A DNA stretch of 64,000 nt from positions 109,429 to 173,428 of the forward strand of contig CAWKOM010000007.1 in assembly GCA_963851235.1 (NCBI GenBank). The letters are read 5' to 3'. The stretch comes from an uncultured Acidobacteriota bacterium. Lineage in GTDB: Bacteria > Acidobacteriota > Terriglobia > Acidiferrales > UBA7541. The notes below the pieces were generated by a model that saw nothing but the letters and a program-made list of their open reading frames with translations, searched no databases and was not told the DNA's origin. Positions 1-40,305 of this stretch are shown piece after piece; the stretch's first letter is position 1; the number at the start of each line of letters is the position of its first letter. Position numbers and translations under genes: made by a program.

Positions 1-81
1 GGCAAAGCCCACACCGAGATTCGTTACCAAACCGAGCTTCATCCCATACGTGCATCTGATTACCATCGAGATTGATTGCTT

Positions 82-3060: not shown

Positions 3061-3266
3061 GGGCGTTTCCTTCGGCTCAGCGAACAACGGGAACCTCATT
3101 TAAGTCATAAGACATATTCATTCCTTGAACGGATCGCCGTGAAGTTAATTTTAGAGCAGTCCAAAAAAACGATAACGCCGGCACTCCGGTACGTGCATTC
3201 CGGATTGGGAACCCCGCCGCTCCTAATAGTCCGAATCAAAATGTAGGCCCATGATGTGGGCTAAAC

Positions 3267-7007: not shown

Positions 7008-7456
7008 TGGATGACTCTTTCCTTAGACGAGGATTATGCCTAGAGCCTTTTGCAAACTGTGAACGGCGCCGCCCTACTAAGCGAAATTCAGACACAAGTG
7101 AGAATGTGAGCAGGGCAGCCGCGTATCGCTTATCCGGCGTTCCAGAGGGAGGGAATTTGAACGCCGGGAAATTGTGGCTTACGAGGACGGAGCCCTCGGT
7201 CGGACCGAAAAGATCTCTTGACCGATGGCCAATCCGAGTAACCGTGAAAGAGCATATCACCCAGGACGCGGGTCTCGTCAAATCCTTCCGGGTGCCTTGC
7301 GCTCAATGGGTTAACTCGCGCTGCTATTGGAGTGTGGAAGTTGAAAGATGACCTCTCGGATGGTAGTTTTGGATCGTACGAGAATCGAGTTCACCGAAGG
7401 CAGTATGAGGTCGCTAAATTATTGAGAACTTTGACTTTGAAGACTTGCGTGGGGCA

Positions 7457-7462
7457 TATAAT
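7457..7462 (+). promoter_or_regulatory. Possible sigma70 -10 element for 7516 gene
   Basis: Perfect TATAAT in an AT-rich intergenic stretch; no -35 at canonical spacing (TTGACT is 20 nt away). Confidence 0.3.
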
Positions 7463-7515
7463 TTGAATTCTGAGCGATTCAGACAAGTTCTTGAAAGGGC
7501 GCCAGTCAAATACTC

Positions 7516-9414: not shown

Positions 9415-9636
9415 TACAAAAACCTTCGCAAAACTTCGCCACGAACAACTGCCCCCCAATAGCAGGCCTAGAGCCACCTACTGCCCATTTACTAGCTCCG
9501 ACGCACAGCACGATAGCGTTCACTGGCCAGTGGTGTAACCCGAGTACAGTCCTCACCGGGGGACTAAATCTGTCCTGCGGACCAATTGTGTGTCTCAATC
9601 GAGAGCGCGAGACTCAAGGTGGGTGGAGGATGCTGA

Positions 9637-12600: not shown

Positions 12601-12897
12601 AGCTACTATGTGAAATGGTCTTACAACGTCACGGTGCTGAACGGAGCGACTCCGGTTTCCGGCGTCACGGTGACAGCCGTGGCAACGGGCGGCGGGACGG
12701 AAACAGTTTCGGGGACGACAAATTCAAGCGGGCAGGCTACTCTGGTGCTGACGAATCATTATGTCACAGGCACGACCGCTCCCGGCACACAGACAAACTT
12801 CACTCCACATAATGTAACTTATAGTGGAAATGGCTGCTCTGGATCAACGACTGTGAATATTACTGCTACGACGAGCGTAACATTGCCATGCACTTAA
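9637..12897 (+). CDS. Putative lipoprotein with five He_PIG (putative Ig) domains followed by a parallel beta-helix domain and Ig tail
   Basis: 1086-aa ORF; lipobox-like VLIMSG-C; repeats ATGGT.PYSWS..SGSLP.GL.LN..SG.I.GTP..AGS.TFT.QV.DS; TFDLNGHTITY beta-helix start. True start may be a few codons downstream. Confidence 0.8.
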   Translation: MLAHRKSTLVSGAGNRPKTDYVTTLFVAMACVAVLIMSGCAGVVSQGSATQTQPTTLTISLSSLPNGQVSSAWSATLTATGGTAPYSWQAAPGTSLPAWMTLNASTGQMSGIPTQAGTITISIQVNDSSAIPHTANKTFTVTISAASSTVSVTTASLANGQVGAAYSATVAATGGTTPYSWSISSGSLPTSLSLNSSSGQITGTPGAAGSFTFTVQVKDSSSTPQTANKSFTVNISAASSTVSITTSSLANGQVGTAYSATVAASGGATPYSWSISSGSLPAGLSLNSSSGQITGTPGAAGSFTFTVQVKDSSSTPQTANKSFTVNISAASSTVSITTSSLANGQVGTAYSATVAASGGATPYSWSISSGSLPAGLSLNSSSGQITGAPGAAGSFTFTVQVKDSSATPQTANKSFTVTIVAVGPTPLSIVTTALPNGQASVRYSASPTATGGTPPYSWSVSSGSLPPGLTLNTTTALISGTPSQAGSYPFTIQVKDSTATPQTASQPFTVTIGTATAGTPVTACGTLSNAGTTYTLQNDVSSSGTCMLIGADNVTFDLNGHTITYDTGGSSSVYGVTDTDPNTILGTHITSSNGQGNIQMSNAACYVDLTTGPGQGLCATSHAVWIRDGEVDHLTLTYYGEDSHGIYLYYGSTANVHDNILYPNHTKAALTHYVEQGEIEIFYISGLITVQNNTIGAVGGGYGLGSAAGIFVSHPNTTSRMAEIYNNNLKMAAAVHDGYAILIGCGNSPSSFEVSGNTINEAGRGILIDNYSTNNATGCTGVYGGTVHDNNVTVNESPDPEGAADAVGIQARGGANNVDVYHNTVTLNVGSGACPPHFYTDTGSDCEGLAIKLLVIASQGGANLVAHDNTVVANTNTTTITLGATGLYGDGIADSGSSFYNNSVTGNSILTSVNGVDGCGDNWLFRNNTLSSSTPLQTFMTLGNLAYCNTGSSTAHDTNNIVLQDNTYAGSAGQDDIGESYAGSGNPFSYYVKWSYNVTVLNGATPVSGVTVTAVATGGGTETVSGTTNSSGQATLVLTNHYVTGTTAPGTQTNFTPHNVTYSGNGCSGSTTVNITATTSVTLPCT
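10072..10899. repeat. Three near-identical 276-bp (92-aa) He_PIG-coding units
   Basis: gc(t/c)tcgagcac recurs at 10072, 10348, 10624. Confidence 0.9.
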
Positions 12898-13153
12898 ATT
12901 TAAGTCTCGACGGTGCTTAACGAATTCCACATGTTCAGTACCACCAGCGGAGTGACAAAACAGATGAGCACTCCACACTCGATCTCGGTAACGGCGACGG
13001 GCTGCTCGATGAGTCCAAATCCGTTTACCGCCGCGGTTTCCCAGACTACTAGTCAAACCGTTACCTGCCAGTAGGCGAGTCACCTTCGAAACTGCGTAGC
13101 CGTTCGGGCTAAATACAGGCCGGTCAATGTTTGGGGCAATTCGCCGATGAGTT

Positions 13154-14110
13154 TCACCGGCCGGTTTCTGTTTGATGCCTTATCAAGCGGCGGCAAGCCC
13201 GCATGAGGTTTCGCAGAGGGGCAAGCACCTGAGAGGGAATGTACGCCACCCCCAGAAGCAACCAGGCCTTCGCGCTCAAGGGTTTATAGCCCACAGCCCG
13301 CCGCAACTTTGCTCTCGCACGGTCCAATGCCAGAATCCGTAGATCGTCTTTGCCCCGCCTGAAGCAAACGCGAAACTTGGCCTCGCGCATCAAATCGGGC
13401 CGCGCAGCCAGCTTCGAGATTTGCCGCTCGACTTTGTCAAAGTTAATAAACAGGTCGTCGAATTGTTTCTCGAGATTCGTGTGACTGTAGTTCTGCCCAT
13501 GGCGCCGATAGTGCAACAAGACTTCGTTCTGGAAAAAAACTTGATAGTGGGCGGCGATCCGCATCCACATGATCCAGTCCTCTCCCCTGACGAAAGGGTC
13601 TTCGTCAAAAAAACCGACTTTGTCGAAACACTCACGGCGGACAAGTACGCAGGAATTGGCGATCCAGTTGTCAAAAAGCAGGGCTTCGAGAACGAATCCA
13701 CTGGGGATGAATTTATGAGCCGCAGCCGACTGCTCGGTAATGCCGGTATGATCGAACGTGGCCGCGTCAGCGGTAATGATGCCGTATTCCGGATGGGCTA
13801 GCGCGACTGCTACTTGCCTCTCAAGTTTGGAAGGCACCCAAATATCATCGGCGTCGAGAAAGGCGATGAAAGAGCCCCGTGCAATCTCCAATCCCCGATT
13901 GCGGCTTGAGGCCGGGCCACCATGACTGTTCTTGAGAAGAATCAGGCGATCCCGGTACGCATCCAGGACGCTTAGTGTTCCATCTGTCGAGCCGTCGTCG
14001 ATGACAACAACTTCAAAATCACGGAAAGTCTGGGAGTACACGCTCTCCAAAGCCTGACCAATGAATTTTTCACCGTTGTAGACAGGAATGATTACGCTCA
14101 CTAGAGGCAT
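13154..14110 (-). CDS. Glycosyltransferase family 2
   Basis: VSVIIPVYN, VIDDGSTDGT, FLDADD (DxD), EDWIMW motifs. Confidence 0.92.
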   Translation of the reverse strand: MPLVSVIIPVYNGEKFIGQALESVYSQTFRDFEVVVIDDGSTDGTLSVLDAYRDRLILLKNSHGGPASSRNRGLEIARGSFIAFLDADDIWVPSKLERQVAVALAHPEYGIITADAATFDHTGITEQSAAAHKFIPSGFVLEALLFDNWIANSCVLVRRECFDKVGFFDEDPFVRGEDWIMWMRIAAHYQVFFQNEVLLHYRRHGQNYSHTNLEKQFDDLFINFDKVERQISKLAARPDLMREAKFRVCFRRGKDDLRILALDRARAKLRRAVGYKPLSAKAWLLLGVAYIPSQVLAPLRNLMRACRRLIRHQTETGR

Positions 14111-14131
14111 TTAAAGGGGCTTCTCCAATTC

Positions 14132-15739
14132 CTAATTCGCGTTTGGAGGCGCGGGCCCAACGACCGCCGAGTTCGGTGAGCGCGGAGCGAACAATCCCGC
14201 CGCGTAAAGCTTGAGTTGTCCACGTTCCTCAGCGTCTAATCCAAGAATTATCAAGAACGGCAGATAGAGAATCAGCCCGCCGATACCTGCTAGGCCAAGG
14301 GTCAGATAAGAATGCACTGGTATGAAGTGCCTTGTGATCAGGGCCCCGCCACTAAACGCAAGAGTTGGCAAGATCGTTGGCAAAATAGAAGTCTTCAGAT
14401 AGTCCATCCAGCGCACGTGAAACACTTTGAGCATGGCATTGGGGAAAAACCAGCCCCGAATCGTCACAGCCGCGAGGGTTGTTCCGGCTGCTACGCCGTA
14501 AATCCCAAAGTGTCTGACAAGGAAAATGCTGCCAGCGAGATTCAAGAGCGCCTCGGCGCCTGTGCACCAGACGTTTAAGCGATGTTTACCCAGGCCAAAC
14601 AAGAGGTGCGCACCTATATTTTCCGTCAATGAAAAGAACAAGCCGATAGTAAGAATCAGCACTACCTTTCCAGAGCGCACGGCGTACTCGTTACCCATCC
14701 ATAAGCGAATGAAGTCGGTGCCCAAACAAAGCAAGGAAGCGCAGCCGAGGTAAGCAAGCAACAGGGTGAATTTGCTGCCACGAGTCAAGAGCCGACTGAC
14801 TCCATGAGAGTGTCCCTTTGCATCAAGATGGCTTGCCAGGGGCGCCACAATCATCGAACTGGCATTAATCAGGTCGCGCAGATACTTGATGAGATTGAAG
14901 CCAATCACGTAAAAGGCAATTTCCTGGACGGGCAAAAAAGCTGCAATCACTATCGCGTCAATCTCGTAGTTTATCCCAACTCCTAGTCCGATGAGCATGG
15001 AGTAACTGCTGTGGCTAAAGATAGGTTTCAGAAACTTTCCGCGGAGGGTTCTCCACGAAATGCGAAGTTCCGGCAAAAGGCGGCGCACAAAGTACACCTC
15101 AATGCCATGACCCACCAGAGAGGCACACAGCTGCACGAGGGCAAGGGACACCAGCCCGTACCCTTTCTCCAGGACGGTGACGATCAAGCAAGCCCGAAAA
15201 ATCAAGACACCCACGGAGATCAGATTACGAAGGTCCCAACGGGAAAGCCCGGCAAGACTCCCCTGGAAGGTGGCAAAAACAAAGTCCGACGCCAAAATAG
15301 CCGTAGCAATGAGGAGGGTGTTTCTTGCTTCCGGCAGAAGGACGATCGGTATATGAAAGTGAGGGAGGATGAAAAAAGCAGTCAGGAGGCCGCCAGCAAG
15401 ACAAAGCAAAGCGAACCCCGCATATAGCTGCAAGGTCGAGCTCATCAATTCATTGAGGCTCTCGTGATCTTCTTGAGCCCGGAGGCGGGAGACAAACCTT
15501 ACGAGAGCGGATCTTAGTCCGACATCGACAACGCCCATGTACCCGGTTAGCTGGAGCATCAGAGCCCAAATGCCATAGGCAGTGTTTCCCAGCCGGTGCA
15601 CAACAAATGGCGCGAGGAAGAAGCTGATTACGAGATTTACCGCTAGGCCGAACCAATTGCTTAACACGCTCCGGGCGATCCAAGACGCCGACGTTGGTGA
15701 CTTGCCTGGCTTGTTCGAACTTGTTTTCAAAGTTTCCAT
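14132..15739 (-). CDS. wzx: Wzx-type oligosaccharide flippase / polysaccharide biosynthesis transporter
   Basis: Many TM helices; LG..AYGIW, D.GL..ALVRFVS, FG..GVAAGT motifs of the MOP/PST family; EPS context. Confidence 0.88.
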   Translation of the reverse strand: METLKTSSNKPGKSPTSASWIARSVLSNWFGLAVNLVISFFLAPFVVHRLGNTAYGIWALMLQLTGYMGVVDVGLRSALVRFVSRLRAQEDHESLNELMSSTLQLYAGFALLCLAGGLLTAFFILPHFHIPIVLLPEARNTLLIATAILASDFVFATFQGSLAGLSRWDLRNLISVGVLIFRACLIVTVLEKGYGLVSLALVQLCASLVGHGIEVYFVRRLLPELRISWRTLRGKFLKPIFSHSSYSMLIGLGVGINYEIDAIVIAAFLPVQEIAFYVIGFNLIKYLRDLINASSMIVAPLASHLDAKGHSHGVSRLLTRGSKFTLLLAYLGCASLLCLGTDFIRLWMGNEYAVRSGKVVLILTIGLFFSLTENIGAHLLFGLGKHRLNVWCTGAEALLNLAGSIFLVRHFGIYGVAAGTTLAAVTIRGWFFPNAMLKVFHVRWMDYLKTSILPTILPTLAFSGGALITRHFIPVHSYLTLGLAGIGGLILYLPFLIILGLDAEERGQLKLYAAGLFAPRSPNSAVVGPAPPNAN

Positions 15740-15883
15740 CAGACTTGACGTCCCAAAATCTTATCTCAGTCGAACTACCGCGGACTTTCCCGTGCGTCAC
15801 TGCCACTGATTAAGAGGGACACCAAGCCGTAGAAGAAGCACCAGCAAGGGCCTGAAGGAGCTCGGCGGTCCAGGAACTTCGAT

Positions 15884-17113
15884 TCAGCGAACTGCAGCTT
15901 GACTTTCAAGTGCACTGGATTTCCGTAGAAGTTCAATTCCCAGCCCCCAGATTTCGATATTGCAACGTTCCGTGGTTAAAGGAGTTGCTACTTCGCGGGA
16001 GCGCTCGCCGATAACACGAGCCTCCTCCGGATGATTCCACAGGAAGGCTAGTGCGCCACGCAACGCATCGCTATCGCCGGGGGGAACCAGTATCCCTGTT
16101 TTTCCGTCTTCGATGTAGTCGGCTCCGCCTTGTGGATCCGTAAGAATAACGGGCTTGCCCATGTACATCGCATTTAAGAAGGTTTGTTGCCCCCCAGTTC
16201 GCAGCAGATCAGCCTGCATCGGTACGACGACGATCCGTGAATCCGCCATGAGTTGTCGGAATTCCGATGGGGTTGCTCCGACGACTTGGACATTGGACGG
16301 AACACTCTTTCCCCTCAATAATCCGGGTAAAGTGGTCGCCACGATGCACCGCACCGGAAGGTCGCGAACGGATTCGAGAAATGGCCCGTAATCGCGGTCG
16401 GAATTTCCCCCCGCAAAGATGTAGCCTTTGTCCCCAACCTCGAAGGTGTAATTACGAAGCGAATGGTGATGAGGGACAAAAACGAACTTTTCGCGAGGGA
16501 CGTTGTAAGCTTTCGAGTACCTGGCTGCTTCAGCGCTCGCCCAAACGACGCATCGGTCAACTTGCCGCAAGCAGGCTCGCATCCAGAGACGCTTCATCCA
16601 GCTGCCGCCGTACCACATGCAGTCATACATCAGTTGAAATGGCCGGCGGCGGCCTCGGAATTTCTGTAAGAAGCCAAAAGCGAGACCATCGAGCGTCCCG
16701 GTGGTTACTACCACGGAATATCTGGAGGACGCTCGAAAGAGAGCCCAGGCGCGCCGCAGTGCCTGGCTTTTGACCGCCAGGCTGGAAAGATGCATCGAGC
16801 GCCAGGCTTTTTCCCACCAGACGTCTTTGCGGAAGTCCAATACGGTAGTGCGATTTTGTAACTCCGGCGGAAGAGCATGTGGACCATATGCGAGAAAGTC
16901 CTGTTGTAGAGCGCGAGAGTCCAACGCGTGTAAGCGTTCCTCTTTCGGTGAATGCAGGATCGGAGGATGTCCGACACCGATTCCGAATCTCTGGGAGGGG
17001 GGCTTGCTAATATCACCCATCAGCCAGGCGGGGAAGAACCGCAGTTTGTTCCAGTTACCAATCGAAGATGTGCCTGCTACCCGCGTCCGCCGGCCGGCTG
17101 GATGGACAATCAT
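15884..17113 (-). CDS. Glycosyltransferase, GT-B fold (GT4-like)
   Basis: FAGGNSDRDY, AMYMGKPVILTD, IEDGKTGILVPPGD motifs; ATGA overlap with upstream gene. Confidence 0.82.
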   Translation of the reverse strand: MIVHPAGRRTRVAGTSSIGNWNKLRFFPAWLMGDISKPPSQRFGIGVGHPPILHSPKEERLHALDSRALQQDFLAYGPHALPPELQNRTTVLDFRKDVWWEKAWRSMHLSSLAVKSQALRRAWALFRASSRYSVVVTTGTLDGLAFGFLQKFRGRRRPFQLMYDCMWYGGSWMKRLWMRACLRQVDRCVVWASAEAARYSKAYNVPREKFVFVPHHHSLRNYTFEVGDKGYIFAGGNSDRDYGPFLESVRDLPVRCIVATTLPGLLRGKSVPSNVQVVGATPSEFRQLMADSRIVVVPMQADLLRTGGQQTFLNAMYMGKPVILTDPQGGADYIEDGKTGILVPPGDSDALRGALAFLWNHPEEARVIGERSREVATPLTTERCNIEIWGLGIELLRKSSALESQAAVR

Positions 17114-18507
17114 TGCGAGCCAACCTGGGATTCGACAGGAGTCGCGGCTGCTTGCCGGGCCACGTGAGAGATGCAGAACCGTGTCTTGCCAGAACGTTCG
17201 CGTTCAATATCGCCCACAGGTTCGAATTCCCAGTGGAGCGTGGTTCCAAAACGAATGGCCAAGCGCTTCGACAGCAAATCAAGATCAATCTGTCCAAAGT
17301 TCTCGCCAGGGACGAAGCGCACTCGGAAGTTTTGAAGCGTCTCCTGGATAATTTGCAACTTTTTGAAGCCCGGGCAGTCTTCCGCTATCAAACGATGCAG
17401 GCTAACACCGGGAACCTGATCGCCATTCGGAAGCGTAAACATATCCGCCACACGGCCAAGAATGCGCCCAATGAGCGGGTATCCACGGCCGCATTTACAA
17501 CTTTGCTCGCTCAGTAGAGCGCAATCATTGATCTTGTACCGGATGAATGGCATTCCGTCGTTTAGCAAGTCGGTGATCAAAATTTCGCAGAGGCCGGGAA
17601 CCTCGCTGTGCCGGATCGGAATAAACTCCAAGTATGCAGAATAGGGATTTAAATGTAGCCCCTGATGATACTCGCATTCTGCTGCGATCATCCCTGACTC
17701 CCGGCTTCCGTACAGCTCGAAAACGGGACACCCCAGGACGGCTTCAATTATCGCGCGTTGTTCAGAGAGCAACGGCTCCGCGGTGCAAATAGCTCCTCGC
17801 GGCCGATGGAAACTCTTTCCACATCCGCGCAAATATTCGCAGAATAGGGCCAAGGGCGTAGGATAGGCGTAGATGATTCGCGGGCGCGTTTCGTCGAGTC
17901 TCTTCCGAAACGACTCCATCACCTCTTCGTTTAGCAAAGATGCGGGAGCCCAAACCCGGCGGTTCACATAGCGGTCATAGAGCTTCCAACGCCAGCTCGG
18001 ATTTGTCGCCAGATCTACTCTCGCACCCCACAAGTAGAAAACATTGTCACCCGGCCACATTCCCGCCCAACTATTGAATCTGAGATGGACAGCATTTTTC
18101 CGCGAAAGCGATTCAGGTGACCGCAGCAGAGCAACCGGCGTATCCGTTGTCCCTCCCGTGGCGGCAGCAGGCAGTAGTTCACGTCGGTAGCGGCGAGACC
18201 AGAGTTTGTCCTGATGAAGACGCAAATCGTCCCGAGTCAGAACCGGGATCTTCGCAAGATCGGCAGGAGAGAGGATGTCGCGGGGACGTAATCCAGCTTG
18301 ATCGAATCGCTCCCGGTAGAAAGGGGTGGTGTCATAAGCATGTTGAAGGAGGCGAAGCAAAGACTGCCATTGGCGCTGAAGATTTTCCGCCATGGGCAGC
18401 TTTTCCAGCTCTTCGTATTTGCGCATCTCAGCTGCTAAACCCCGGTTAAGTTCGGGCGCACTGATCGGAAGCACGGCATTGACGTAAAGCCAGTTAATGG
18501 CGCGCAA
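17110..18507 (-). CDS. Phenylacetate-CoA ligase family (CapK-like) adenylate-forming enzyme, copy 1
   Basis: TGGTTDTP P-loop, LYGSRE, ITDL.N..MPFIRY, GRVAD. Start reassigned to TTG 18507, with GGAGG 5-6 nt upstream and a short overlap with the previous stop. Confidence 0.85.
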   Translation of the reverse strand: MRAINWLYVNAVLPISAPELNRGLAAEMRKYEELEKLPMAENLQRQWQSLLRLLQHAYDTTPFYRERFDQAGLRPRDILSPADLAKIPVLTRDDLRLHQDKLWSRRYRRELLPAAATGGTTDTPVALLRSPESLSRKNAVHLRFNSWAGMWPGDNVFYLWGARVDLATNPSWRWKLYDRYVNRRVWAPASLLNEEVMESFRKRLDETRPRIIYAYPTPLALFCEYLRGCGKSFHRPRGAICTAEPLLSEQRAIIEAVLGCPVFELYGSRESGMIAAECEYHQGLHLNPYSAYLEFIPIRHSEVPGLCEILITDLLNDGMPFIRYKINDCALLSEQSCKCGRGYPLIGRILGRVADMFTLPNGDQVPGVSLHRLIAEDCPGFKKLQIIQETLQNFRVRFVPGENFGQIDLDLLSKRLAIRFGTTLHWEFEPVGDIERERSGKTRFCISHVARQAAATPVESQVGSQ

Positions 18508-31589: not shown

Positions 31590-31605
31590 TGGCAGATGAA
31601 GTGCA
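31590..31605 (+). promoter_or_regulatory. Candidate sigma54 promoter for the methyltransferase-larA-like-deacetylase-GT-C operon
   Basis: TGGCAGATGAAGTGCA (GG-N10-GC). Confidence 0.6.
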
Positions 31606-31705
31606 TTCGTAAGCTAGGTCATTTCTTGCCGGGACCCTGCGATTTCGGTGGTTGCCTCAGGAAGCGGAGTGAACCTTGAACACTTGCGACGAAAAAAGCT
31701 GTGAA

Positions 31706-32545
31706 ATGAAATCATCGGTAGTCTCTGATGATAGGAAAGTTGCTGAGTACTTTGACTCCGCTGCTGCCACTTGGCATAACATGTACACCCGTAAGGACAT
31801 ATGGGGTGAAATCCATCAGGAGCGCTTGGCAAGATTTCTGGCTTTGGCATCTAATCTGCCTTTGCCCAGGGGGAGCGAGGTGTTGGAAGTGGGATGCGGC
31901 GCGGGGCACGCTGCCGTTGCACTCGCTGAGCGTGGCCATATCGTCGAGGCGACTGATGTTTCGCAGAGTATGGTTGACCTTACAATGAACAATGCTGTTG
32001 CTGCTGGTGTTGCGGACAGAATCCACGCTACGGTCGGCGACATCTACAAAATAGACTTCAGTTCAGGCACTTTCAACTTGGTACTTTCGATCGGAGTCAT
32101 ACCCTGGCTCTCGTCCCCGGGCGCCGCCATCGAAGAACTCGCTCGTGTCCTCAAACCTGGCGGCTATCTTCTCTTTACGGCGGACAACCGCTCGCGCTTG
32201 GCGCGCTTAATCGATCCAGCTACTTCTCCACTTTTCAGTGCGATAAAAAAGTTGTTCAAGAAAATCTTCTCGTCGTCGGACCACCTAGCCCCAGAGCCAA
32301 CCGGAATTAAGTCCAATCAACATTCTCTCAAAGAGGTCGACGATTTCCTGGTGCATGCCGGACTAGAGCGCTTGCAATGCAGAACGCTTGGCTTTGGCCC
32401 TTTCACATACTTTTATCGCAAGTTCCTGCCCGACCGTTTGGAAGTAGCCGTTAACCGCTTCTTACAGCGCCTGGTCGATTTAGAAGTGCCCCTCATTCGC
32501 TCAACCGGAGCACAGTTCGTGTTACTCGCCAGGAAACGACCCTAG
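31706..32545 (+). CDS. Class I SAM-dependent methyltransferase
   Basis: VLEVGCGAG motif I, DVSQSM, FNLVLSIGV, LKPGG; ATG 31706 preferred over TTG 31676. Confidence 0.9.
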   Translation: MKSSVVSDDRKVAEYFDSAAATWHNMYTRKDIWGEIHQERLARFLALASNLPLPRGSEVLEVGCGAGHAAVALAERGHIVEATDVSQSMVDLTMNNAVAAGVADRIHATVGDIYKIDFSSGTFNLVLSIGVIPWLSSPGAAIEELARVLKPGGYLLFTADNRSRLARLIDPATSPLFSAIKKLFKKIFSSSDHLAPEPTGIKSNQHSLKEVDDFLVHAGLERLQCRTLGFGPFTYFYRKFLPDRLEVAVNRFLQRLVDLEVPLIRSTGAQFVLLARKRP

Positions 32546-32600: not shown

Positions 32601-33944
32601 ATGACAAACGATCGACATCTTCGGACAGGCGCTTGGCATGGAGACTCACCACTTCATCTCGATTACCCCACAGGATGGAACGTGGTAACTCATTGGCCAA
32701 ACACTCCTCCTCCTCTGACAGACGCAGAAATTTCTTGCTGTTTTGAACGGCCCGTCGGACAGCCTCGTTTGCGCGATCTTTGCAAGGGAAGTTCTCGGCC
32801 GCTCGTCTTAGTAGATGATTTGAACCGGCCTACTCCTGCCGCCAGAATCTTGCCTTTTTTGCTCAGTGAATTTGAAGCTGCAGGAATTCCCTTCTCCAAT
32901 GTCACAATCCTCATTGCCCGCGGCTCGCATGGTGAGCCTCATCCTCAATCTCTCCGGCTTAAAGTCGGGCCTCAAGTGGCGTCAACCTGCCGCGTGTTGT
33001 TGCACGATCCATACCGCAATACCAGAAAAATTGGAAAAACTTCGTTCGGGACACCCGTTCATGTGAACAAGGAAGTCTCTGACGCCGATTTTGTAATGGG
33101 TATCGGCGGAATTTATCCCAACAATACGGCTGGTTTTGGGGGCGGAGCGAAGCTGGCCTTGGGCGTTCTCGATATCCGAGTCATCTCGCAATTGCATCGA
33201 AAACATAACGGCGCGGGTTGGGGAAGGAGCGGGCTGGCAAGTAACTTTCGAAAGGACCTGGATGAGATTGCTCGTATCATCGGTCTGCAATCCTTAGTTA
33301 CTGCACACGTTAATGCTGACCGTGAGCTGATCCGGGTGCGATCTGGCGATTTCAGGCAGTACTACGAGGAAGAAGTCGAATTTGCAAGGCAAGCGTTCCG
33401 CACCCCCAAACCAAATGGAGCGGATGTCGTCATCTCCAACGCCTTCCCGAATGATCTGTCTCTCACCTTCGTGCATATGAAGGGTATCAACCCGCTTCGT
33501 CACGCGCCTCCGGGCGCCTCGCGAATTGTTCTCGGCGCTTGCAGCGAGGGAGAAGGTTTTCATGGGGTCTACCCCATTGTGCGCATGCCGCTCTTTCACG
33601 AACAAAGGGATCGTTTCCGCCGCATTTCTTTGATGACGCCGTCGGAGATTTTGCAAAAAATGGCTGAAAAGTTTAAGCGCAAACTTCACCCTGAGGTCTC
33701 GTCCGATGGGGATAGACAATCTGTTTCTCTCGAGCGATCTCCACTTCCACAGCTCCCACCGAAAAAGCCGATCTGGCTTTATCATACCGGGAACAGTTCC
33801 CAAGCTCTTCCTCCAGAAGTTCGCAGCATGAAAATTCGGTACAACTGGAATGAGATTCTGGATATTGTCCGAAGGGAACAGGATGGCCGCGAAAACCTCA
33901 GCGTTGTCGTGTACCCTTGCGCACCCCTGCAGATTATTGAGTGA
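32601..33944 (+). CDS. Lactate racemase (LarA/DUF2088) family protein, nickel-pincer-type alpha-hydroxy-acid racemase/epimerase homolog
   Basis: L.VDDLNRPTP, ARGSH, PVHVNK.V..AD, AGFGGGAK, GEG motifs match the LarA family. Confidence 0.82.
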   Translation: MTNDRHLRTGAWHGDSPLHLDYPTGWNVVTHWPNTPPPLTDAEISCCFERPVGQPRLRDLCKGSSRPLVLVDDLNRPTPAARILPFLLSEFEAAGIPFSNVTILIARGSHGEPHPQSLRLKVGPQVASTCRVLLHDPYRNTRKIGKTSFGTPVHVNKEVSDADFVMGIGGIYPNNTAGFGGGAKLALGVLDIRVISQLHRKHNGAGWGRSGLASNFRKDLDEIARIIGLQSLVTAHVNADRELIRVRSGDFRQYYEEEVEFARQAFRTPKPNGADVVISNAFPNDLSLTFVHMKGINPLRHAPPGASRIVLGACSEGEGFHGVYPIVRMPLFHEQRDRFRRISLMTPSEILQKMAEKFKRKLHPEVSSDGDRQSVSLERSPLPQLPPKKPIWLYHTGNSSQALPPEVRSMKIRYNWNEILDIVRREQDGRENLSVVVYPCAPLQIIE

Positions 33945-34066
33945 GCCTTTGGTTTAGCGCCGATTTGGGGCGCCCACTCACGGTAATCTGTTTTGCAATT
34001 TTTTGTTGAAAGGCAATCCACCCTTTGGACTGATGTCGGCGAATTTTCTTGGAGACCGGGACCGGT

Positions 34067-35062
34067 ATGAAGCAACAAGCAAAGAGAGCCATCCTAAAGA
34101 GCAGGCTCCTCTCCCTAGCTGGGCGGTGCCTCCCTCAAAGGATCGCCATTCTTAAGTATCACTCCGTCCAGGATGATCTCGGGCGCTACCTCCACTCTCT
34201 CGGGCCAGGTATTGTCCACTCCACTGCCGCATTTCGAGCCCAGATGGAAGTTGTGGCTCAACGATTCAATCCGGTAAGTCTTGATGACGTCAGTATGTTT
34301 CTCAAACAGGGCAAGGGCCTGCCGCCTAGGCCCGTAGCCATCACTTTTGACGACGGTTTTCTCGATAATGCGGAAATTGCAGCCCCTATACTGGATCGCC
34401 TAGGCATCCCTGCTGCCTTCTACATTACCGTAGACCCTGTCGAAACTGGAGGGGTCCCTTGGTTCTGTCGTTTGCGCCACGCCTTTGCCACGACGAGCAA
34501 AAAAAAATGGTTCGATTCCATCGCTAGTTGCGAACGCAACCTGCAGGACCCGGTGGATCGGAAGGCAGCCTTTAGCGTGGCTTCCGAACGCTGTGCACGT
34601 ACGGCGGGAAGTGCACTGCAGCAGTGTGTCCGCACAATTGAGCGGGAACTGGAGGTCGATCAACTCTCGGATAAGCTGATGATGACGTGGGATCACGTTC
34701 GGCTCCTCCATAAATCAGGGCACATTATTGGCTCCCATACGGTCACGCACCCCAACATGGCTCAGGTCGCCACCAGTGACCTCAACCGGGAATGCGTTGA
34801 TTCAAAGGCTGCGCTGGAAGAGAAGTTAAGCGCTCCGGTTACTCATTTTTCTTACCCCTCGCCCATTCTTCAACCTCATTGGAGTGAAGCGACCGTAAGA
34901 GCGACAGCCTCGGCTGGCTACCAAGTGGCCGTCACGAGTACTGCCGGACCCGTCAAGCATGGCAACTGTGTGCTCTCCCTTCAAAGAGTGGTGGTTCCGT
35001 CAGAAGCTGAAGAGCTTGCATGGATTTTGGAAAATTCGATGCTCGGGCGACGTTTCCCTTGA
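34067..35062 (+). CDS. Polysaccharide deacetylase (NodB/CE4)
   Basis: ILKYHSV, AITFDDG, MMTWD, IGSHTVTHP, FSYP motifs. Confidence 0.9.
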   Translation: MKQQAKRAILKSRLLSLAGRCLPQRIAILKYHSVQDDLGRYLHSLGPGIVHSTAAFRAQMEVVAQRFNPVSLDDVSMFLKQGKGLPPRPVAITFDDGFLDNAEIAAPILDRLGIPAAFYITVDPVETGGVPWFCRLRHAFATTSKKKWFDSIASCERNLQDPVDRKAAFSVASERCARTAGSALQQCVRTIERELEVDQLSDKLMMTWDHVRLLHKSGHIIGSHTVTHPNMAQVATSDLNRECVDSKAALEEKLSAPVTHFSYPSPILQPHWSEATVRATASAGYQVAVTSTAGPVKHGNCVLSLQRVVVPSEAEELAWILENSMLGRRFP

Positions 35063-35158
35063 GTCAAATTGCGCGACACAAAGTCGCTCAGGCATTTGTT
35101 GTTTATTTTGTTGAATGGCTCGTCGTACAGCTTCAATCGTTTGATCGAGGTTCGGCTA

Positions 35159-36931
35159 ATGAATGATTCGAAAGCAAGTATTGTTGGGGATCCAATCGAA
35201 GCCAGCCCCAAGCAATATGAGGTAAGTGAGCTGCGCCTGCGATCCGTTTTCTGGGCCTTGGCCGTCTTCGTTGCGGCATTTCTTACTTGGTCAGCACGCT
35301 TTAGCATCACGGTTGACGGTATGTCGTACCTGGACATCGCAGATGCCTATTTCCGCCGTGACTGGGGGATGGCGATAAATGCCTATTGGAGCCCTCTTTA
35401 TTCTTGGGCGCTCGGACTTGGTCTCTGGATCTTGAAGCCATCAACTTATTGGCAGTTTCCCGCGGTCCAATTCGTAAATTTCTTGATTTGCGTTCTAAGT
35501 CTGTGGTGTTTTGACTTCTTTTGGAGTCAGCAAGCCCAGTTTCTTTACGCCGACTCCTCAAAGACAGCCGAGAGTTGCCAAACCACTTTGCCGCTCTGGG
35601 CGTGGTTCTCCCTTGGCTATACGCTTTTCATTTGGTCCATCGCACGTGCCACAATCGTTTCGGCGGTGACCCCTGATTTGTTGGTCTCGGCGATTGTCTT
35701 CCTTGCAAGTGGTCTCATCGTCCGCATCCGCAGAGGTCATAACGGGTTCCTTACCTTTCTTCTCCTGGGACTAGTTCTTGGAGTTGGCTATCTCTGCAAA
35801 TCGGCTATGTTTGTCATCGGTTTCGTCTTTCTCGGGGTGGCTTTTCTAGCCGTGGGGGATGTTAGAAAGTCGGTCGTCAGAACCTGCGCGGCCCTTCTCG
35901 TCTTTCTAATCGTAGCCGCGCCTTTCGTAATCGCCATCTCCCGCAGCAAGCATCGCTTTACCATTGGTGATACGGCCAAAATCAATCTCGCATGGGGCGT
36001 TAATCAGAGCGCTCCCTTTTTTAACTGGCAGGGTGGTGATCCCAGAGCGGGGACTCCTAAACATTCCACTAGAAAATTGCTCTCCGTGCCGGCCGTGTAT
36101 GAATTTGCTTACCCCATCGGGGGGACCTATCCCCCTCACTATGATCCCTCGTATTGGAATGAGGGATTGACCCCTTACTTCAGCCTCAAACAACAGCTTC
36201 GAGCGTTGGTTACCAGCACGTATGCCTTTTACTCTGACTTTGTTGTTCCTCAGTCGGGGCTCCTTACAGGTGTACTTATCGCGCTGTTTATGAGCACAAG
36301 CATTTCTGCGGCTCTCCGGCGTCTCAGTAAAAATTGGCATTTGTGGTTTCCGGCGGTCGCTACAATAGGTATGTACTCATTGGTTACACTGGAGCACCGT
36401 TATGTCGGCCCGTTCGTTATTCTGCTTTGGGCCGCGGCTCTTTCCGCCATCCAGCTTCCTACTTCTCAGTTTTCGAAGAGGCTCCTCACTTGTGTCGCAA
36501 TTTTCGGGATCTTCACGCTTATGCTATCCACCGCCGAGTATTTTGGATCGCGCATCTATGAATGGAGACAGCGCTCGACAAACGGCAATTGGCAGATTGC
36601 TGATGGCCTTCTCCGGATGGGAATTCGGCAAGGACAGAAGGTGGTCTCTCTGGGGACTGCCTACAACGCTTACTGGGCTCGACTGGGCCAGTTAAAGATT
36701 GTTGCGGAAATCCCTTCCAGTGACGTCCTAACCTTTTGGGGAGGCGGCCGGGAACTGCAGTCCACGGTCATCGAAGTCTCACGCAACACAGGTGCTGCCG
36801 CGATCGTGGCGAGTGAGGTTCCTAGAGGTGCTCAGCTTCCAGGATGGCAACCTGTCGGCCAAACTGGTTTCTATGTCTTTCTGCTCCCGCCAGCGGGTCT
36901 TTCAAACTCCCAATCATCTGATTCCCGTTGA
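35159..36931 (+). CDS. Polytopic membrane protein, probable GT-C (ArnT/PMT-like) glycosyltransferase
   Basis: About 12 hydrophobic segments; acidic first loop DGMSYLDIA...NAYWSPLY; TPDLL; GYLCK; periplasmic loop. ATG 35159 has GAGG upstream. Confidence 0.6.
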   Translation: MNDSKASIVGDPIEASPKQYEVSELRLRSVFWALAVFVAAFLTWSARFSITVDGMSYLDIADAYFRRDWGMAINAYWSPLYSWALGLGLWILKPSTYWQFPAVQFVNFLICVLSLWCFDFFWSQQAQFLYADSSKTAESCQTTLPLWAWFSLGYTLFIWSIARATIVSAVTPDLLVSAIVFLASGLIVRIRRGHNGFLTFLLLGLVLGVGYLCKSAMFVIGFVFLGVAFLAVGDVRKSVVRTCAALLVFLIVAAPFVIAISRSKHRFTIGDTAKINLAWGVNQSAPFFNWQGGDPRAGTPKHSTRKLLSVPAVYEFAYPIGGTYPPHYDPSYWNEGLTPYFSLKQQLRALVTSTYAFYSDFVVPQSGLLTGVLIALFMSTSISAALRRLSKNWHLWFPAVATIGMYSLVTLEHRYVGPFVILLWAAALSAIQLPTSQFSKRLLTCVAIFGIFTLMLSTAEYFGSRIYEWRQRSTNGNWQIADGLLRMGIRQGQKVVSLGTAYNAYWARLGQLKIVAEIPSSDVLTFWGGGRELQSTVIEVSRNTGAAAIVASEVPRGAQLPGWQPVGQTGFYVFLLPPAGLSNSQSSDSR

Positions 36932-37266: not shown

Positions 37267-37413
37267 GACTCTGATGCGCTGTAAGCCTCCTGCACCATGG
37301 ATGATTGGGCCCCCTATTCGCCGTTTGAGCGAGGCCGAAAGAGCGCAGGAGAGCTGCTGGAACGCCAACAACCACGTAGCCCCCGCAGTCGGGAGAAAGC
37401 GGACTCAAAAATT

Positions 37414-38259
37414 ATGATAAGCCATAAGATCGACGACCTCGTTGAGCGGACATTAAATGCCCCTGAAGGGAAGGTCCACACCAAAGACTATCTGAAAAAA
37501 ATAGGTGTCCCCGAAATGGCCCCCGCGGTTAGTCCCTTTGATCCCGGCTATGATCCTCTAACTCTGGAGGGACACTTGGAGCAGAGTTTCCACCTAATGT
37601 CCATCCTCAAGATCTCCATGGCGTGCTGGATTATCGCGGATGAGGCTGCAACTCGCCGCAAAATTGCTGCCGCCAAGAAACACAAGGTACCCACGGTCAC
37701 CGGTGGCGGCCCGTTTGAGGTCGCTGTCGCGCAGGGACAGTTGCCGGCGTACCTTGATCTCTGCGCCGATATCGGCGTTACCCGAATCGAGTGCGGAGAA
37801 GGCTTCACGGACATGCCCTTGCAAGCCTCCGATGTCGTCAAAATGGCTCACGAGCGCGGCTTACAAGTCCAGTTCGAACTCGGCAAGAAACACACCGGTG
37901 CTTTTACCGAATCTGTGATCACCGAATTGATCGAACAAGGTCACCGCTGGCTCGACGCCGGGGCCCTGCAATTAGTCGTCGAAGCTCGCGAAAGCGCCCG
38001 CGGCGTTGGACTCTTTGACGACCAGGGAAATTTTAACGCCTCCTACGCTGACCGCTTCGCCAAAACCTTCGGCTTCAAAACCATCATATTCGAGGCCCCC
38101 AATAAACCAAGCCAGTTCGCTCTTCTCGATCACTTCGGCCCTGAAGTCCACCTTTGCAACGTCCGCTTGGAAGAGGTTCTTCGCGTCGAGATTTATCGCC
38201 GGGGCCTCCATTCTGATGCATTTTCTCGGGAAAACTTGCGTCCCCGCCGGATCGCATGA
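37414..38259 (+). CDS. comA: (2R)-phospho-3-sulfolactate synthase
   Basis: LKIS, TGGGPFE, IECGEGF, ELGKK (catalytic Lys motif), VVEARES, IFEAP.K..Q....FGP.V..CNV, EIYRRGLHSD. Alternative start ATG 37297. Confidence 0.9.
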   Translation: MISHKIDDLVERTLNAPEGKVHTKDYLKKIGVPEMAPAVSPFDPGYDPLTLEGHLEQSFHLMSILKISMACWIIADEAATRRKIAAAKKHKVPTVTGGGPFEVAVAQGQLPAYLDLCADIGVTRIECGEGFTDMPLQASDVVKMAHERGLQVQFELGKKHTGAFTESVITELIEQGHRWLDAGALQLVVEARESARGVGLFDDQGNFNASYADRFAKTFGFKTIIFEAPNKPSQFALLDHFGPEVHLCNVRLEEVLRVEIYRRGLHSDAFSRENLRPRRIA

Positions 38260-39083
38260 ACTTTGCTGAACAAGAGGACACTATGAACTCGCCAGTTTCC
38301 AAAACAGTGGTCATCGATTGTTTTCCCGAGAATGCCGGGCGGTATAAGCAGGACGGTTATGCCGTCGTGGCCATAGACGTCATCCGTGCGACGACTACAG
38401 TCAACACCGCCGTCGGTATGGGCCGCCGGTGCTTTCCTGTTGCTACCGTCGATGAAGCTCTCGCCGTGGCTGCCAATCTGGATAATCCCCTGATGGCTGG
38501 CGAGTTGGGCGGCGACATGCCGGACGGCTTTCATATTTCCAACAGCCCTGCTCTGGTTTCTCAACACAACGACATTCACCGCCCCATGGTTCTCCTCTCT
38601 ACATCGGGCACCAAGATTATCGTTGCGGCCAAGGGCAGTGCCGCTTGCTATGTCGCGAGCCTCAGAAACTACACTGCGCAAATCGAACATCTGATTAAGA
38701 ACCATGCCAAGGTTGCCGTCATCGGCGCCGGAACCCGCGGCGAGTTTCGTGAAGAGGATCAATTGTGCTGTGCCTGGATTGCTGACGGACTCGTTCAGGC
38801 AGGCTACAGCCCCGCCGACGAACAGACTGCCAAATTGATAGGACGCTGGCGAAACGCCCCCATTGAGGACATGCTCGTTAGCAACAGCGTCGCCTATCTC
38901 AAGCGAAGCGGCCAGCTCCGTGATTTAGACTTTGTCCTGGCGCATATTGACGATCAAGCTTCCGTATTCGAGCTTCAAGGCAACGAGGTTGTGATGCTTC
39001 CTCCAAACCGTGCTTCGCTCACAGAGCCGCCCGGCTATCTCGAACCGAAGTCCGCGCTCCCCCAGTTGAATGCAAACCTTTGA
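38256..39083 (+). CDS. comB: 2-phosphosulfolactate phosphatase
   Basis: VAIDVIRATTT, GELGG, F..SNSP, LSTSGT, EEDQLCC motifs; ATGA overlap with comA stop. Confidence 0.92.
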   Translation: MNFAEQEDTMNSPVSKTVVIDCFPENAGRYKQDGYAVVAIDVIRATTTVNTAVGMGRRCFPVATVDEALAVAANLDNPLMAGELGGDMPDGFHISNSPALVSQHNDIHRPMVLLSTSGTKIIVAAKGSAACYVASLRNYTAQIEHLIKNHAKVAVIGAGTRGEFREEDQLCCAWIADGLVQAGYSPADEQTAKLIGRWRNAPIEDMLVSNSVAYLKRSGQLRDLDFVLAHIDDQASVFELQGNEVVMLPPNRASLTEPPGYLEPKSALPQLNANL

Positions 39084-40305
39084 TACCTCCCTTCCGGTCG
39101 TTGTTCTCCGGCCGGACCATCATGGCTCGCTCTGTCTGATCCGGACTCTAGGAAGAATCGGCGTTCCCGTCTACGGAGTTGGAAGTCAGCTTCGCTCCGC
39201 CGGTATGGTTTCTCGGTATTGCCGCGACAAATTTATTTTCCCGGACGGCGCATCAAGTGCGCAGGCGCAAGTTGACTTTCTGAAGGAGGTTATGAGAAAG
39301 ATCGGATCGCGCCCGCTGCTTACATGCACGAACGACGTCTCCAGCACGTTTATCGCGGAGAATTCCGCCGTCCTTCGCGAGTCTTTCCTCTTCCCCAACA
39401 TTTCCAGCGACCTCGTCCAGACTCTTACCGACAAGAAACTCATGTATTTCCTCGCGAAAAAGCTTGATATCCCCACGGCAGAAACTTCCTTCCCTCAGTC
39501 TCGTCAGGACGTGTTGAATTTTCTCGAAGGGGACGCCGTGTCTTTCCCGATCATGCTAAAAGGGATTGACGGCGCTGCCCTCGAGCGTCGGGGAAAGCCT
39601 AAGATGGTCATCGTCCGCACTCCCCAGGAACTTCTCCAGCAGTACGACTGGATTGAGGACCCGGCCAATCCAAATCTCATGCTTCAGGAGTACATTCCGG
39701 GCGGCGACAATTCCGTCTGGATGTTTAACGGCTATTTTAACGCAAATTCCGATTGCTTATTCGGCATTGCAGGTCAGAAGCTCCGGCAGCACCCTGTCTA
39801 TACCGGCGCGACATCCTTGGGGATCTGTTTGCGAAACGAGGTGGTCGAGGAAACCACGAAAAGATTAATGAAATCTGTGGGTTATCGCGGCGTGCTGGAT
39901 ATCGGCTATCGGTACGACGAGCGTGACGGAAAGTACAAGGTTCTGGACATCAATCCCAGAGTGGGCGCCACATTCCGTCTCTTTCTCGATCAAAATGGCA
40001 TGGATGCGGTGCGCGCCATGTATCTCGATCTTACTGGCCAAGCAGTCTCCGTTTCTCCGCCTCGCGTGGGCCGCAAGTGGGTCGTCGAGAACGGTGATAT
40101 CATCTCGTTCCACGACTACCATCGCGACGGTAAACTCACCTTCTTTCAGTGGATCCGGTCATTCAAGGGTGTGCAGGAAGCGGCATGGTTTGCCTCAGAC
40201 GACCTGGCTCCTTTCTTACTGATGTTGCGCGGGCTTGCGAGCAGATTCTTGCTCTGGCTGCGAGCCAAGCTCTCTCTCCGAGCGCGCGCCGGCCCGGCTG
40301 CATGA
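39070..40305 (+). CDS. ATP-grasp carboxylate-amine ligase (D-aspartate-ligase-like family)
   Basis: L..IRTLGR.G.PV, L.DK..MY, FPIMLK, MLQEYIPG, KLRQHP, D.RDG.YK.LDINPR; 14-nt overlap with comB. Confidence 0.85.
   Translation: MQTFDTSLPVVVLRPDHHGSLCLIRTLGRIGVPVYGVGSQLRSAGMVSRYCRDKFIFPDGASSAQAQVDFLKEVMRKIGSRPLLTCTNDVSSTFIAENSAVLRESFLFPNISSDLVQTLTDKKLMYFLAKKLDIPTAETSFPQSRQDVLNFLEGDAVSFPIMLKGIDGAALERRGKPKMVIVRTPQELLQQYDWIEDPANPNLMLQEYIPGGDNSVWMFNGYFNANSDCLFGIAGQKLRQHPVYTGATSLGICLRNEVVEETTKRLMKSVGYRGVLDIGYRYDERDGKYKVLDINPRVGATFRLFLDQNGMDAVRAMYLDLTGQAVSVSPPRVGRKWVVENGDIISFHDYHRDGKLTFFQWIRSFKGVQEAAWFASDDLAPFLLMLRGLASRFLLWLRAKLSLRARAGPAA

Follow-up and report, generated by a model that had tools for sequence, protein, structure and literature searches.

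A LarA-family clade marked by loss of His174 is linked to ComA and ComB in polysaccharide loci and may act on 3-sulfolactate

Introduction

Racemases of the LarA family rely on the nickel-pincer nucleotide (NPN) as their cofactor and move a hydride, coupled to a proton, at C2 of a 2-hydroxy acid; His108 acts on D-configured substrates and His174 on L-configured ones (PMC11770544, PMC12611868). What homologs with a single catalytic histidine do is a question in this field, and the 2025 structures of two such proteins came without a substrate (PMC12611868). The subject of this study is a LarA-like protein of the single-histidine kind, encoded in a stretch of 64,000 nucleotides from an uncultured Acidobacteriota bacterium (contig CAWKOM010000007.1, positions 109,429 to 173,428, assembly GCA_963851235.1). 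This whole stretch is referred to below as the window, and coordinates are counted from its first letter. The protein appears to represent an undescribed branch of the LarA family, and its relatives are repeatedly found beside homologs of ComA and ComB, two enzymes of 3-sulfolactate synthesis. The gene in question is the following:

32601..33944, + strand: LarA-family protein (P0001, Asn/Gln174 clade), intact open reading frame (ORF) with an ATG start, 447 aa

Comparison with described systems

The solved structures closest to the LarA-like protein are those of Mar2 (6d6z, E=1e-31), the broad-spectrum racemase LarAIp (9eid, E=2e-28) and L. plantarum LarA (5huq, E=5e-19). Mar2 (LarAH6) of Thermoanaerobacterium thermosaccharolyticum (6d6z, 7s91) and Mar1 (LarAH5) share with it the two-domain fold and the D/R/H/K/H set of cofactor residues, and malate, the substrate of Mar2, is the carboxylate analogue of 3-sulfolactate. 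Mar2, however, keeps both catalytic histidines, falls in a different region of the tree and has no ComA/ComB context. It has the loop residues Y-K and a G-H-K motif, where the LarA-like protein has N-N-T and G-G-A-K. None of the curated NCBIfam LarA equivalogs reached its cut-off on the LarA-like protein (bits/cut-off: LarAH6, 168.8/500; LarAH5, 147.5/462; LarAH10, 125.7/540; LarA, 121.1/460; LarAH14/15/16, 23.9/740), the best curated family being the malate racemase LarAH6 (NF052593).

L. plantarum LarA shares the fold (template-modelling, TM, score 0.65-0.79) at an identity of about 18-20%. In a HMMER alignment to this protein (5huq), the cofactor-site residues D72, R75, K184 and H200 correspond to D73, R76, K184 and H199, the first catalytic histidine H108 to H110, and the substrate-carboxylate binder K298 to K294. 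The second catalytic histidine is lost, H174 being replaced by N174, and with it Phe175-Phe176 has become Asn-Thr and the other carboxylate binder, Q295, has become V291. With asparagine in place of His174, the protein cannot follow the classical racemase mechanism, which needs two histidines. The genomic setting differs as well: the gene belongs to a biosynthetic glycan locus instead of a lar operon, and larB, larC and larE are found at other places in the genome.

Asparagine at the His174 position also occurs in LarABw and LarASp (9q2u, 9q3k, 9q3j; Gatreddi et al. 2025, PMC12611868), which retain the lysine, the nickel-ligand histidine, the aspartate and the first catalytic histidine, and for which the canonical two-base mechanism has been ruled out (PMC12611868). 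Even so, they are distant from the present protein, with a phmmer match at E=4e-8 over the N-domain only (against 1e-31 for Mar2) and a Foldseek match at E ~1e-16 and a TM score of 0.56-0.60. They are about 500 aa long, form octamers, carry Lys in place of Arg75 and are encoded among glycolysis and sugar-transport genes (PMC12611868), whereas the LarA-like protein has 447 aa, keeps Arg76 and has ComA and ComB as neighbours. Membership in the LarABw/LarASp subfamily, or in NCBIfam LarAH14/15/16, was rejected on similarity, length and the presence of Arg76 instead of Lys. Since LarABw and LarASp are distant and differ in length, in the Arg75 position and in genomic context, the loss of His174 in the present clade looks independent of theirs as judged by these comparisons.

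With regard to sulfolactate itself, the 'racemase' of Chromohalobacter salexigens was reportedly resolved by Denger and Cook in 2010 into two opposed dehydrogenases, SlcC plus ComC. The pair is said to achieve the same net interconversion of (R)- and (S)-3-sulfolactate by way of sulfopyruvate. It would do so, however, with two NAD(P)-dependent enzymes and free sulfopyruvate in a degradative setting, whereas the present proposal is for one NPN enzyme that keeps the intermediate bound and belongs to a biosynthetic cassette. The two neighbours in the window belong to the same families as ComA and ComB of methanogen coenzyme M synthesis and YitD and YitC of B. subtilis, which serve spore sulfolactate. 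In contrast to the coenzyme M route, neither ComC nor ComDE homologs were noticed among the cassette genes, and the cassette's product is apparently ligated by an ATP-grasp enzyme in polysaccharide loci rather than turned into coenzyme M.

The LarA-like protein

Three LarA motifs, together with a change of the usual H-F-F-A-G to N-N-T-A-G, had been remarked on in the sequence-only reading of this locus, and both observations hold. The ORF carries DDLNRPTP at residues 72-79, ARGSH at 106-110 and NNTAGFGGGAK at 174-184, the last of these ending in the cofactor lysine aligned to Lys184 of LarA. Asn174 is encoded by AAC at 33120-33122; this codon, like those of the other key residues listed here, was checked against the DNA:

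32817-32819, + strand: codon of D73
32826-32828, + strand: codon of R76
32928-32930, + strand: codon of H110
33150-33152, + strand: codon of K184
33195-33197, + strand: codon of H199
33480-33482, + strand: codon of K294

The protein is matched by Pfam Lar_N (PF09861, COG3875) at E=7e-35, with 120.5 bits against a gathering cut-off of 23.3. No Pfam match to the LarA C-terminal domain was found at E<=0.001. An AlphaFold2 (AF2) model built with 106 homologs has a mean predicted local distance difference test (pLDDT) score of 91.3 and a predicted TM (pTM) score of 0.89, and Foldseek aligned it over its full length with LarA and LarAIp structures (8ezf, 9eia and 5huq; TM 0.72-0.79). Since the model superposes on both enzymes in this way, the C-terminal domain is predicted to be LarA-like too, giving the protein the two-domain LarA fold. 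The domain is divergent past residue 325 and contains a clade-specific insert, which is the only part of the model predicted to be disordered:

33708-33749, + strand: disordered insert rich in Pro, Ser and charged residues, C-terminal domain, residues 370-383 (AF2 model)

This insert varies in both length and sequence across the clade and is not present in canonical LarA structures.

A clade with asparagine or glutamine at position 174

The replacement of His174 is common to the close relatives of the protein. Of 121 close homologs, 117 carry Asn at position 174 and the remainder Ser or Gln, while D73, R76, H110, K184 and H199 are invariant in the 120 best homologs (46-99% identity) and K294 is invariant in a set of 106 sequences. 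The residue equivalent to Q295 is Val, Ala or Ile. Two other histidines were considered as a displaced catalytic residue and rejected: position 175 is variable (N, H, Y, Q, R or S), and His202 is common also in outgroups that keep His174.

The limits of this group were drawn by an exhaustive search of representatives of 50%-identity clusters. Full-length matches above about 290 bits have Asn or Gln at position 174 in every case but one basal His sequence, and matches below about 230 bits have His in almost all cases. On a maximum-likelihood tree the group forms a clade with an SH-like approximate likelihood ratio test (SH-aLRT) value of 100, on a long stem and apart from the branch of LarA, LarAIp and Mar2; its tree representatives comprise 12 Asn sequences, which are nested, 10 Gln sequences and the basal His sequence. 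By alignment and tree, then, the LarA-like protein falls within a well-supported and apparently undescribed LarA clade marked by His174 -> Asn/Gln. The clade is rare and patchy. When 300 evenly sampled genomes of the phylum were searched, no orthologs were found, the best match having 36% identity, and this sample served as background.

The basal sequence, P0143 (a 50%-cluster representative), is the only full-length clade member found with His174, and it groups with those of the Gln type. This protein could represent an intermediate stage of evolution.

Linkage of the clade to ComA and ComB

In the window, the genes run in the order methyltransferase, LarA-like protein, polysaccharide deacetylase, 620-aa protein, ComA, ComB, ATP-grasp ligase, exosortase, EpsI and epimerase. 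Those that recur with the LarA-like gene in other genomes are the following (SAM, S-adenosylmethionine):

31676..32545, + strand: class I SAM-dependent methyltransferase (Methyltransf_11/25), start uncertain (TTG 31676 or ATG 31706)
37297..38259, + strand: ComA-family phosphosulfolactate synthase (Pfam E=5e-47)
38256..39083, + strand: ComB-family 2-phosphosulfolactate phosphatase (Pfam E=2e-35)
39070..40305, + strand: ATP-grasp ligase, 411 aa, third gene of the ComA-ComB-ligase cassette (weak Pfam and NCBIfam ATP-grasp matches)

The ComA protein also matches the phosphosulfolactate synthase of M. jannaschii (1qwg) over the whole domain at E=5e-33, as well as the B. subtilis protein 1u83. As listed, its ORF is about 40 aa longer at the N terminus than its homologs (278-287 aa); translation probably starts at the in-frame ATG at 37414 instead, for a product of 281 aa.

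To place this arrangement in a wider frame, 51 species-level loci were fetched with a profile of the clade and searched with the window proteins; 30 are orthologous (at least 43% identity) and 21 are outgroup loci (37% identity or less). All relatives of the LarA-like protein come from metagenome-assembled genomes (MAGs). Most of the orthologous loci are labelled Terriglobia or Acidobacteriota, and the other labels are Chloroflexia, Anaerolineaceae, Bacteroidota, deltaproteobacterium, Krumholzibacteriia and Solirubrobacterales. Within 10 kb of the LarA-like gene, ComA was found in 24/30 orthologous loci, ComB in 22/30, the ATP-grasp ligase in 23/30 and the methyltransferase, directly 5' of the LarA-like gene, in about 20/30, with the misses falling mostly at contig ends. 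In the outgroup loci, by comparison, ComA, ComB, the ligase and the methyltransferase were found in 0/21. Position 174 follows the same division, being N or Q in 30/30 orthologs and His in 21/21 outgroup homologs, so that the His174 change coincides exactly with ComA/ComB linkage.

A close ComA (58-86% identity) is present somewhere in the genome in 27/30 cases. Any ComA at all was found in 8 of the 300 other genomes of the phylum sample (3%), and the comparison of this figure with the 24/30 loci that have ComA within 10 kb gives a Fisher p=3e-24. The cassette genes are mostly directly adjacent but occur in at least 10 permuted orders and orientations; because of these many arrangements, and because the MAGs carry several phylum labels, the linkage is not mere inherited synteny. 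Glycosyltransferases and export genes are not conserved around the LarA-like gene. Conservation of the deacetylase, the 620-aa protein, the exosortase and EpsI is confined to the closest relatives, and these genes are therefore taken as locus context outside the module.

In a MAG labelled Bacteroidota (L013/L022, DASQAZ010000050.1, genes 1709-4609 and 10916-12301), the cassette is flanked by two FemAB-like (Acetyltransf_6) genes and an AMP-binding ligase, a hint that the same decoration may receive additional acyl or peptide modifications.

A cassette without LarA

The cassette can also be found on its own. One genome of the same class (G279) encodes ComA at 75%, ComB at 51% and the ligase at 47% identity, but it has no ortholog of the LarA clade and no methyltransferase within 20 kb of the cassette. 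Here the three genes (L074, G279:C1:6978200-6998100, genes 3534-12981) come directly after two DegT aminotransferases, a PglF-like 4,6-dehydratase and a family 4 glycosyltransferase (GT4), and the whole resembles a biosynthetic route to an N-sulfolactyl amino-dideoxy sugar. Because the cassette follows aminotransferases and a dehydratase in this genome, the arrangement supports the view that it would deliver sulfolactate to an amino sugar, with the ATP-grasp protein as a putative carboxylate-amine ligase. Since both the LarA ortholog and the methyltransferase are missing, it also supports the view that the LarA-like enzyme, usually with the methyltransferase directly 5', is an add-on that alters the donor and is dispensable for the cassette. 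The same stretch holds two ORFs of 318 and 437 aa without a family match.

Supply of the NPN cofactor

The source genome (5.7 Mb in 28 contigs) encodes larB, larC and larE, all above curated cut-offs. The larC and larE genes are on contig 22, and larB lies about 90 kb upstream on the contig from which the window comes. The ORF at 32601-33944 encodes the sole Lar_N protein of this genome, and a clade member is likewise the only Lar_N protein in 13/30 clade-carrying genomes. The presence of larBCE permits the use of NPN without being diagnostic of it, since LarC is widespread in the phylum, occurring in 222/301 genomes (74%).

A LarA homolog at E<=1e-20 was found in 72/301 genomes of the phylum, as against LarC in 222/301, and this excess points to other, as yet unrecognised NPN-dependent proteins in the phylum. 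Genomes with larBCE but without larA are already known (PMC11796402).

Other features of the locus

The methyltransferase gene ends 55 nt 5' of the LarA-like gene, and its PDB matches are to generic class I O-, N- and carboxyl-methyltransferases, which do not single out a substrate. The ATP-grasp protein had no match in a PDB sequence search. Its AF2 model (pLDDT 91.8) matched biotin carboxylases, PurK and L-amino-acid ligases in Foldseek at E ~1e-15, generic fold matches that carry no substrate clue. The remaining features considered in the window are these:

34049..35062, + strand: polysaccharide deacetylase (Polysacc_deac_1), context only, syntenic in the closest relatives only
35069..36931, + strand: 620-aa protein without a family match, context only, in the closest relatives only
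31590..31605, + strand: sigma-54-type -24/-12 element TGGCAGATGAAGTGCA (GG-N10-GC), a sequence pattern only

The deacetylase could expose the amine that is to be acylated. The element TGGCAGATGAAGTGCA lies about 70-100 nt 5' of the methyltransferase gene that heads the gene string and is a candidate operon promoter. Scans for promoters and terminators gave no excess of sites over shuffled sequence.

Proposed role and its alternatives

The explanation that best accounts for these data, to which we give a probability of about 0.5, is that the LarA-like protein is an NPN-dependent enzyme that would invert C2 of free 3-sulfolactate and so feed the ATP-grasp ligation of this acid onto a glycan. ComA would join phosphoenolpyruvate (PEP) and sulfite to give (2R)-phosphosulfolactate, from which ComB would produce (2R)-3-sulfolactate. 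The free acid would be bound through R76 and K294; His110 would take the proton of the C2 hydroxyl while the C2 hydride passed to NPN, leaving enzyme-bound sulfopyruvate, and return of the hydride to the opposite face would then yield the (2S) isomer. A stereospecific ligase and/or the methyltransferase might draw off the (2S) form and thereby pull the equilibrium, the end product being a putative sulfolactyl decoration of an amino sugar made within polysaccharide-synthesis loci. With only one acid/base residue left, inversion would need a flip: the planar sulfopyruvate would turn over so that its carboxylate and CH2-sulfonate arms swap sites, with the carboxamide of Asn/Gln174 hydrogen-bonding one anionic arm and His110 handling the hydroxyl of both isomers. 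Such a flip may be likened to the single-base mechanism of UDP-galactose 4-epimerase.

Free 3-sulfolactate is favoured as the substrate because it is the only 2-hydroxy acid made by the conserved neighbours and is the sulfonate analogue of malate, which is in turn the substrate of the best curated and solved relatives, the malate racemases. A free acid is favoured also because the equivalent of the carboxylate-binding K298 is kept. A possible sulfolactate racemase had already been proposed in the sequence-only reading, which placed the making of 3-sulfolactate 3.5 kb downstream, and the follow-up lends that proposal support. Alignment to L. plantarum LarA retains the cofactor residues and H108 and lacks H174, the genome encodes larB, larC and larE, the tree puts the protein in a clade of its own, the downstream ComA and ComB are real Pfam matches, and comA/comB linkage is found well above the phylum background. 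Family membership, the residues kept and lost, the structure of the clade and the co-occurrence of genes are direct results of the analysis. We infer the activity on sulfolactate from the gene neighbourhood only, and NPN loading, the substrate, inversion and the flip are likewise proposals.

Several observations weigh against sulfolactate inversion. By Cahn-Ingold-Prelog (CIP) priorities the (2R) product of ComB is L-configured, and the canonical geometry would fail with it because the L-substrate side is left without a base. In LarAIp, it is His174 that acts as the base for L-configured substrates (PMC12611868). The malate racemases, which handle a similar di-anionic substrate, keep both histidines, and the carboxylate site is altered in the present protein by the change of Q295 to Val. 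Sulfite inhibits LarA. According to the title of PDB entry 6c1w, sulfite, which is the substrate of ComA, forms an adduct with NPN in LarA. LarC is present in 24/30 clade-carrying genomes, which is no enrichment over the 74% phylum background; the phyletic argument for NPN dependence was dropped for this reason, and NPN use is without independent support from the phyletic pattern. Lastly, two clade members have no ComA or ComB nearby. One is P0102 (L011/L027), in whose genome ComA is on another contig, and the other is P0043 (L010, JGI contig Ga0683538_0000083, genes 1-17509), a 55%-identical Asn174 protein with no ComA or ComB within 10 kb.

The neighbours of P0043 comprise an ATP-sulfurylase/adenosine 5'-phosphosulfate (APS) kinase, a CysQ-like phosphatase, a sulfotransferase, two methyltransferases, Wzx, an asparagine synthase and a heparinase II/III-like protein. 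This locus places the clade in a sulfur-decoration setting of another kind.

The same evidence can be read in other ways. An enzyme acting after ligation, on C2 of a sulfolactyl group carried by a sugar nucleotide, a lipid-linked sugar or the polymer, or else on another intermediate of the cassette, would fit the co-occurrence data equally, and the loss of Q295 together with the divergence past residue 325 and the insert may suit the pocket to a larger substrate. Against this, the carboxylate binders R76 and K294 are invariant, where an amide or ester would offer no carboxylate, and the characterised LarA homologs all use free 2-hydroxy acids (PMC7583248, PMC11770544). We regard action after ligation as unlikely. 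The near universality of Asn/Gln174 in the clade might instead reflect a non-inverting reaction, that is, some other NPN hidden-redox chemistry on sulfolactate or a relative, such as oxidation of one enantiomer with the hydride delivered elsewhere, although we know of no precedent for a reaction of this kind. It has been speculated upon by Desguin et al. for homologs without His174 and the literature allows it (PMC7583248, PMC12611868), and the tight pairing with a methyltransferase could mean chemistry beyond inversion. Yet no chemically sensible hydride acceptor was found within sulfopyruvate, and a loss of sulfite to give pyruvate would undo the work of ComA in a biosynthetic cassette, so that a non-inverting reaction seems quite improbable.

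That all the loci are polysaccharide clusters raises the further thought that the substrate is an unrelated 2-hydroxy or sugar acid (lactate, glycerate or an aldonic acid) and that linkage to ComA and ComB reflects no more than shared glycan-decoration loci. The locus of P0043, with synthesis of 3'-phosphoadenosine 5'-phosphosulfate (PAPS), a sulfotransferase, Wzx and a heparinase-like gene in place of a nearby ComA/ComB pair, could be taken in this sense. The linkage is nevertheless specific to ComA, ComB and the ligase, mostly by direct adjacency and through many permutations, while glycosyltransferases, deacetylase, exosortase and export genes are not conserved nearby and ComA is rare in the phylum (3% of genomes). 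We hold an unrelated acid to be very unlikely, and the sugar-acid epimerase that the sequence-only reading had named as its alternative is likewise made less likely by the ComA/ComB linkage. An inert or NPN-free protein, for instance a binding or scaffold protein derived from LarA, would explain both the missing histidine and the want of LarC enrichment. It is, however, hard to reconcile with cofactor residues, H110 and K294 that stay invariant in more than 100 sequences down to 46% identity, as in a working active site, or with the published single-histidine LarA homolog that loads NPN (PMC12611868), and we give it hardly any weight.

There is also a more far-reaching reading, in which the protein would be a single-base NPN enzyme with new nickel-pincer chemistry, whether a GalE-like flip of a di-anionic substrate or a non-inverting hydride shuttle on sulfolactate, and would serve as the dedicated stereochemical step of an undescribed pathway by which bacterial exopolysaccharides receive a carbon-bonded sulfonate in the form of a sulfolactyl group. 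This is offered as a tentative and rather doubtful suggestion.

Significance

What is new here is that the LarA-like genes of the cassette, judged by sequence, belong to one clade, defined by His174 -> Asn/Gln. In the supplements of Desguin et al. 2020 as searched, where the context table was covered for groups 1-16, there is no mention of COG1809, COG2045 or 'sulfolactate'. In the literature searched, no paper named both sulfolactate and lactate racemase, and there was no relevant paper on phosphosulfolactate synthase together with exopolysaccharide.

For the question of what single-histidine LarA homologs do, the present clade is a second and apparently independent case, and its neighbourhood names a concrete candidate substrate, 3-sulfolactate, a compound accessible enzymatically from PEP and sulfite by means of the adjacent ComA and ComB. 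Published tools, namely co-expression with LarBCE in E. coli and a circular dichroism (CD) assay, put the mechanism within direct experimental reach (PMC11796402). If the proposal is true, 3-sulfolactate would be the first sulfonate substrate for the nickel-pincer cofactor. The protein would also be a single-enzyme sulfolactate racemase, the only one known to us so far being a pair of dehydrogenases. For the organisms concerned, stereochemical tailoring would then be added to the predicted sulfonate decoration of the exopolysaccharides of soil bacteria, mostly Acidobacteriota.

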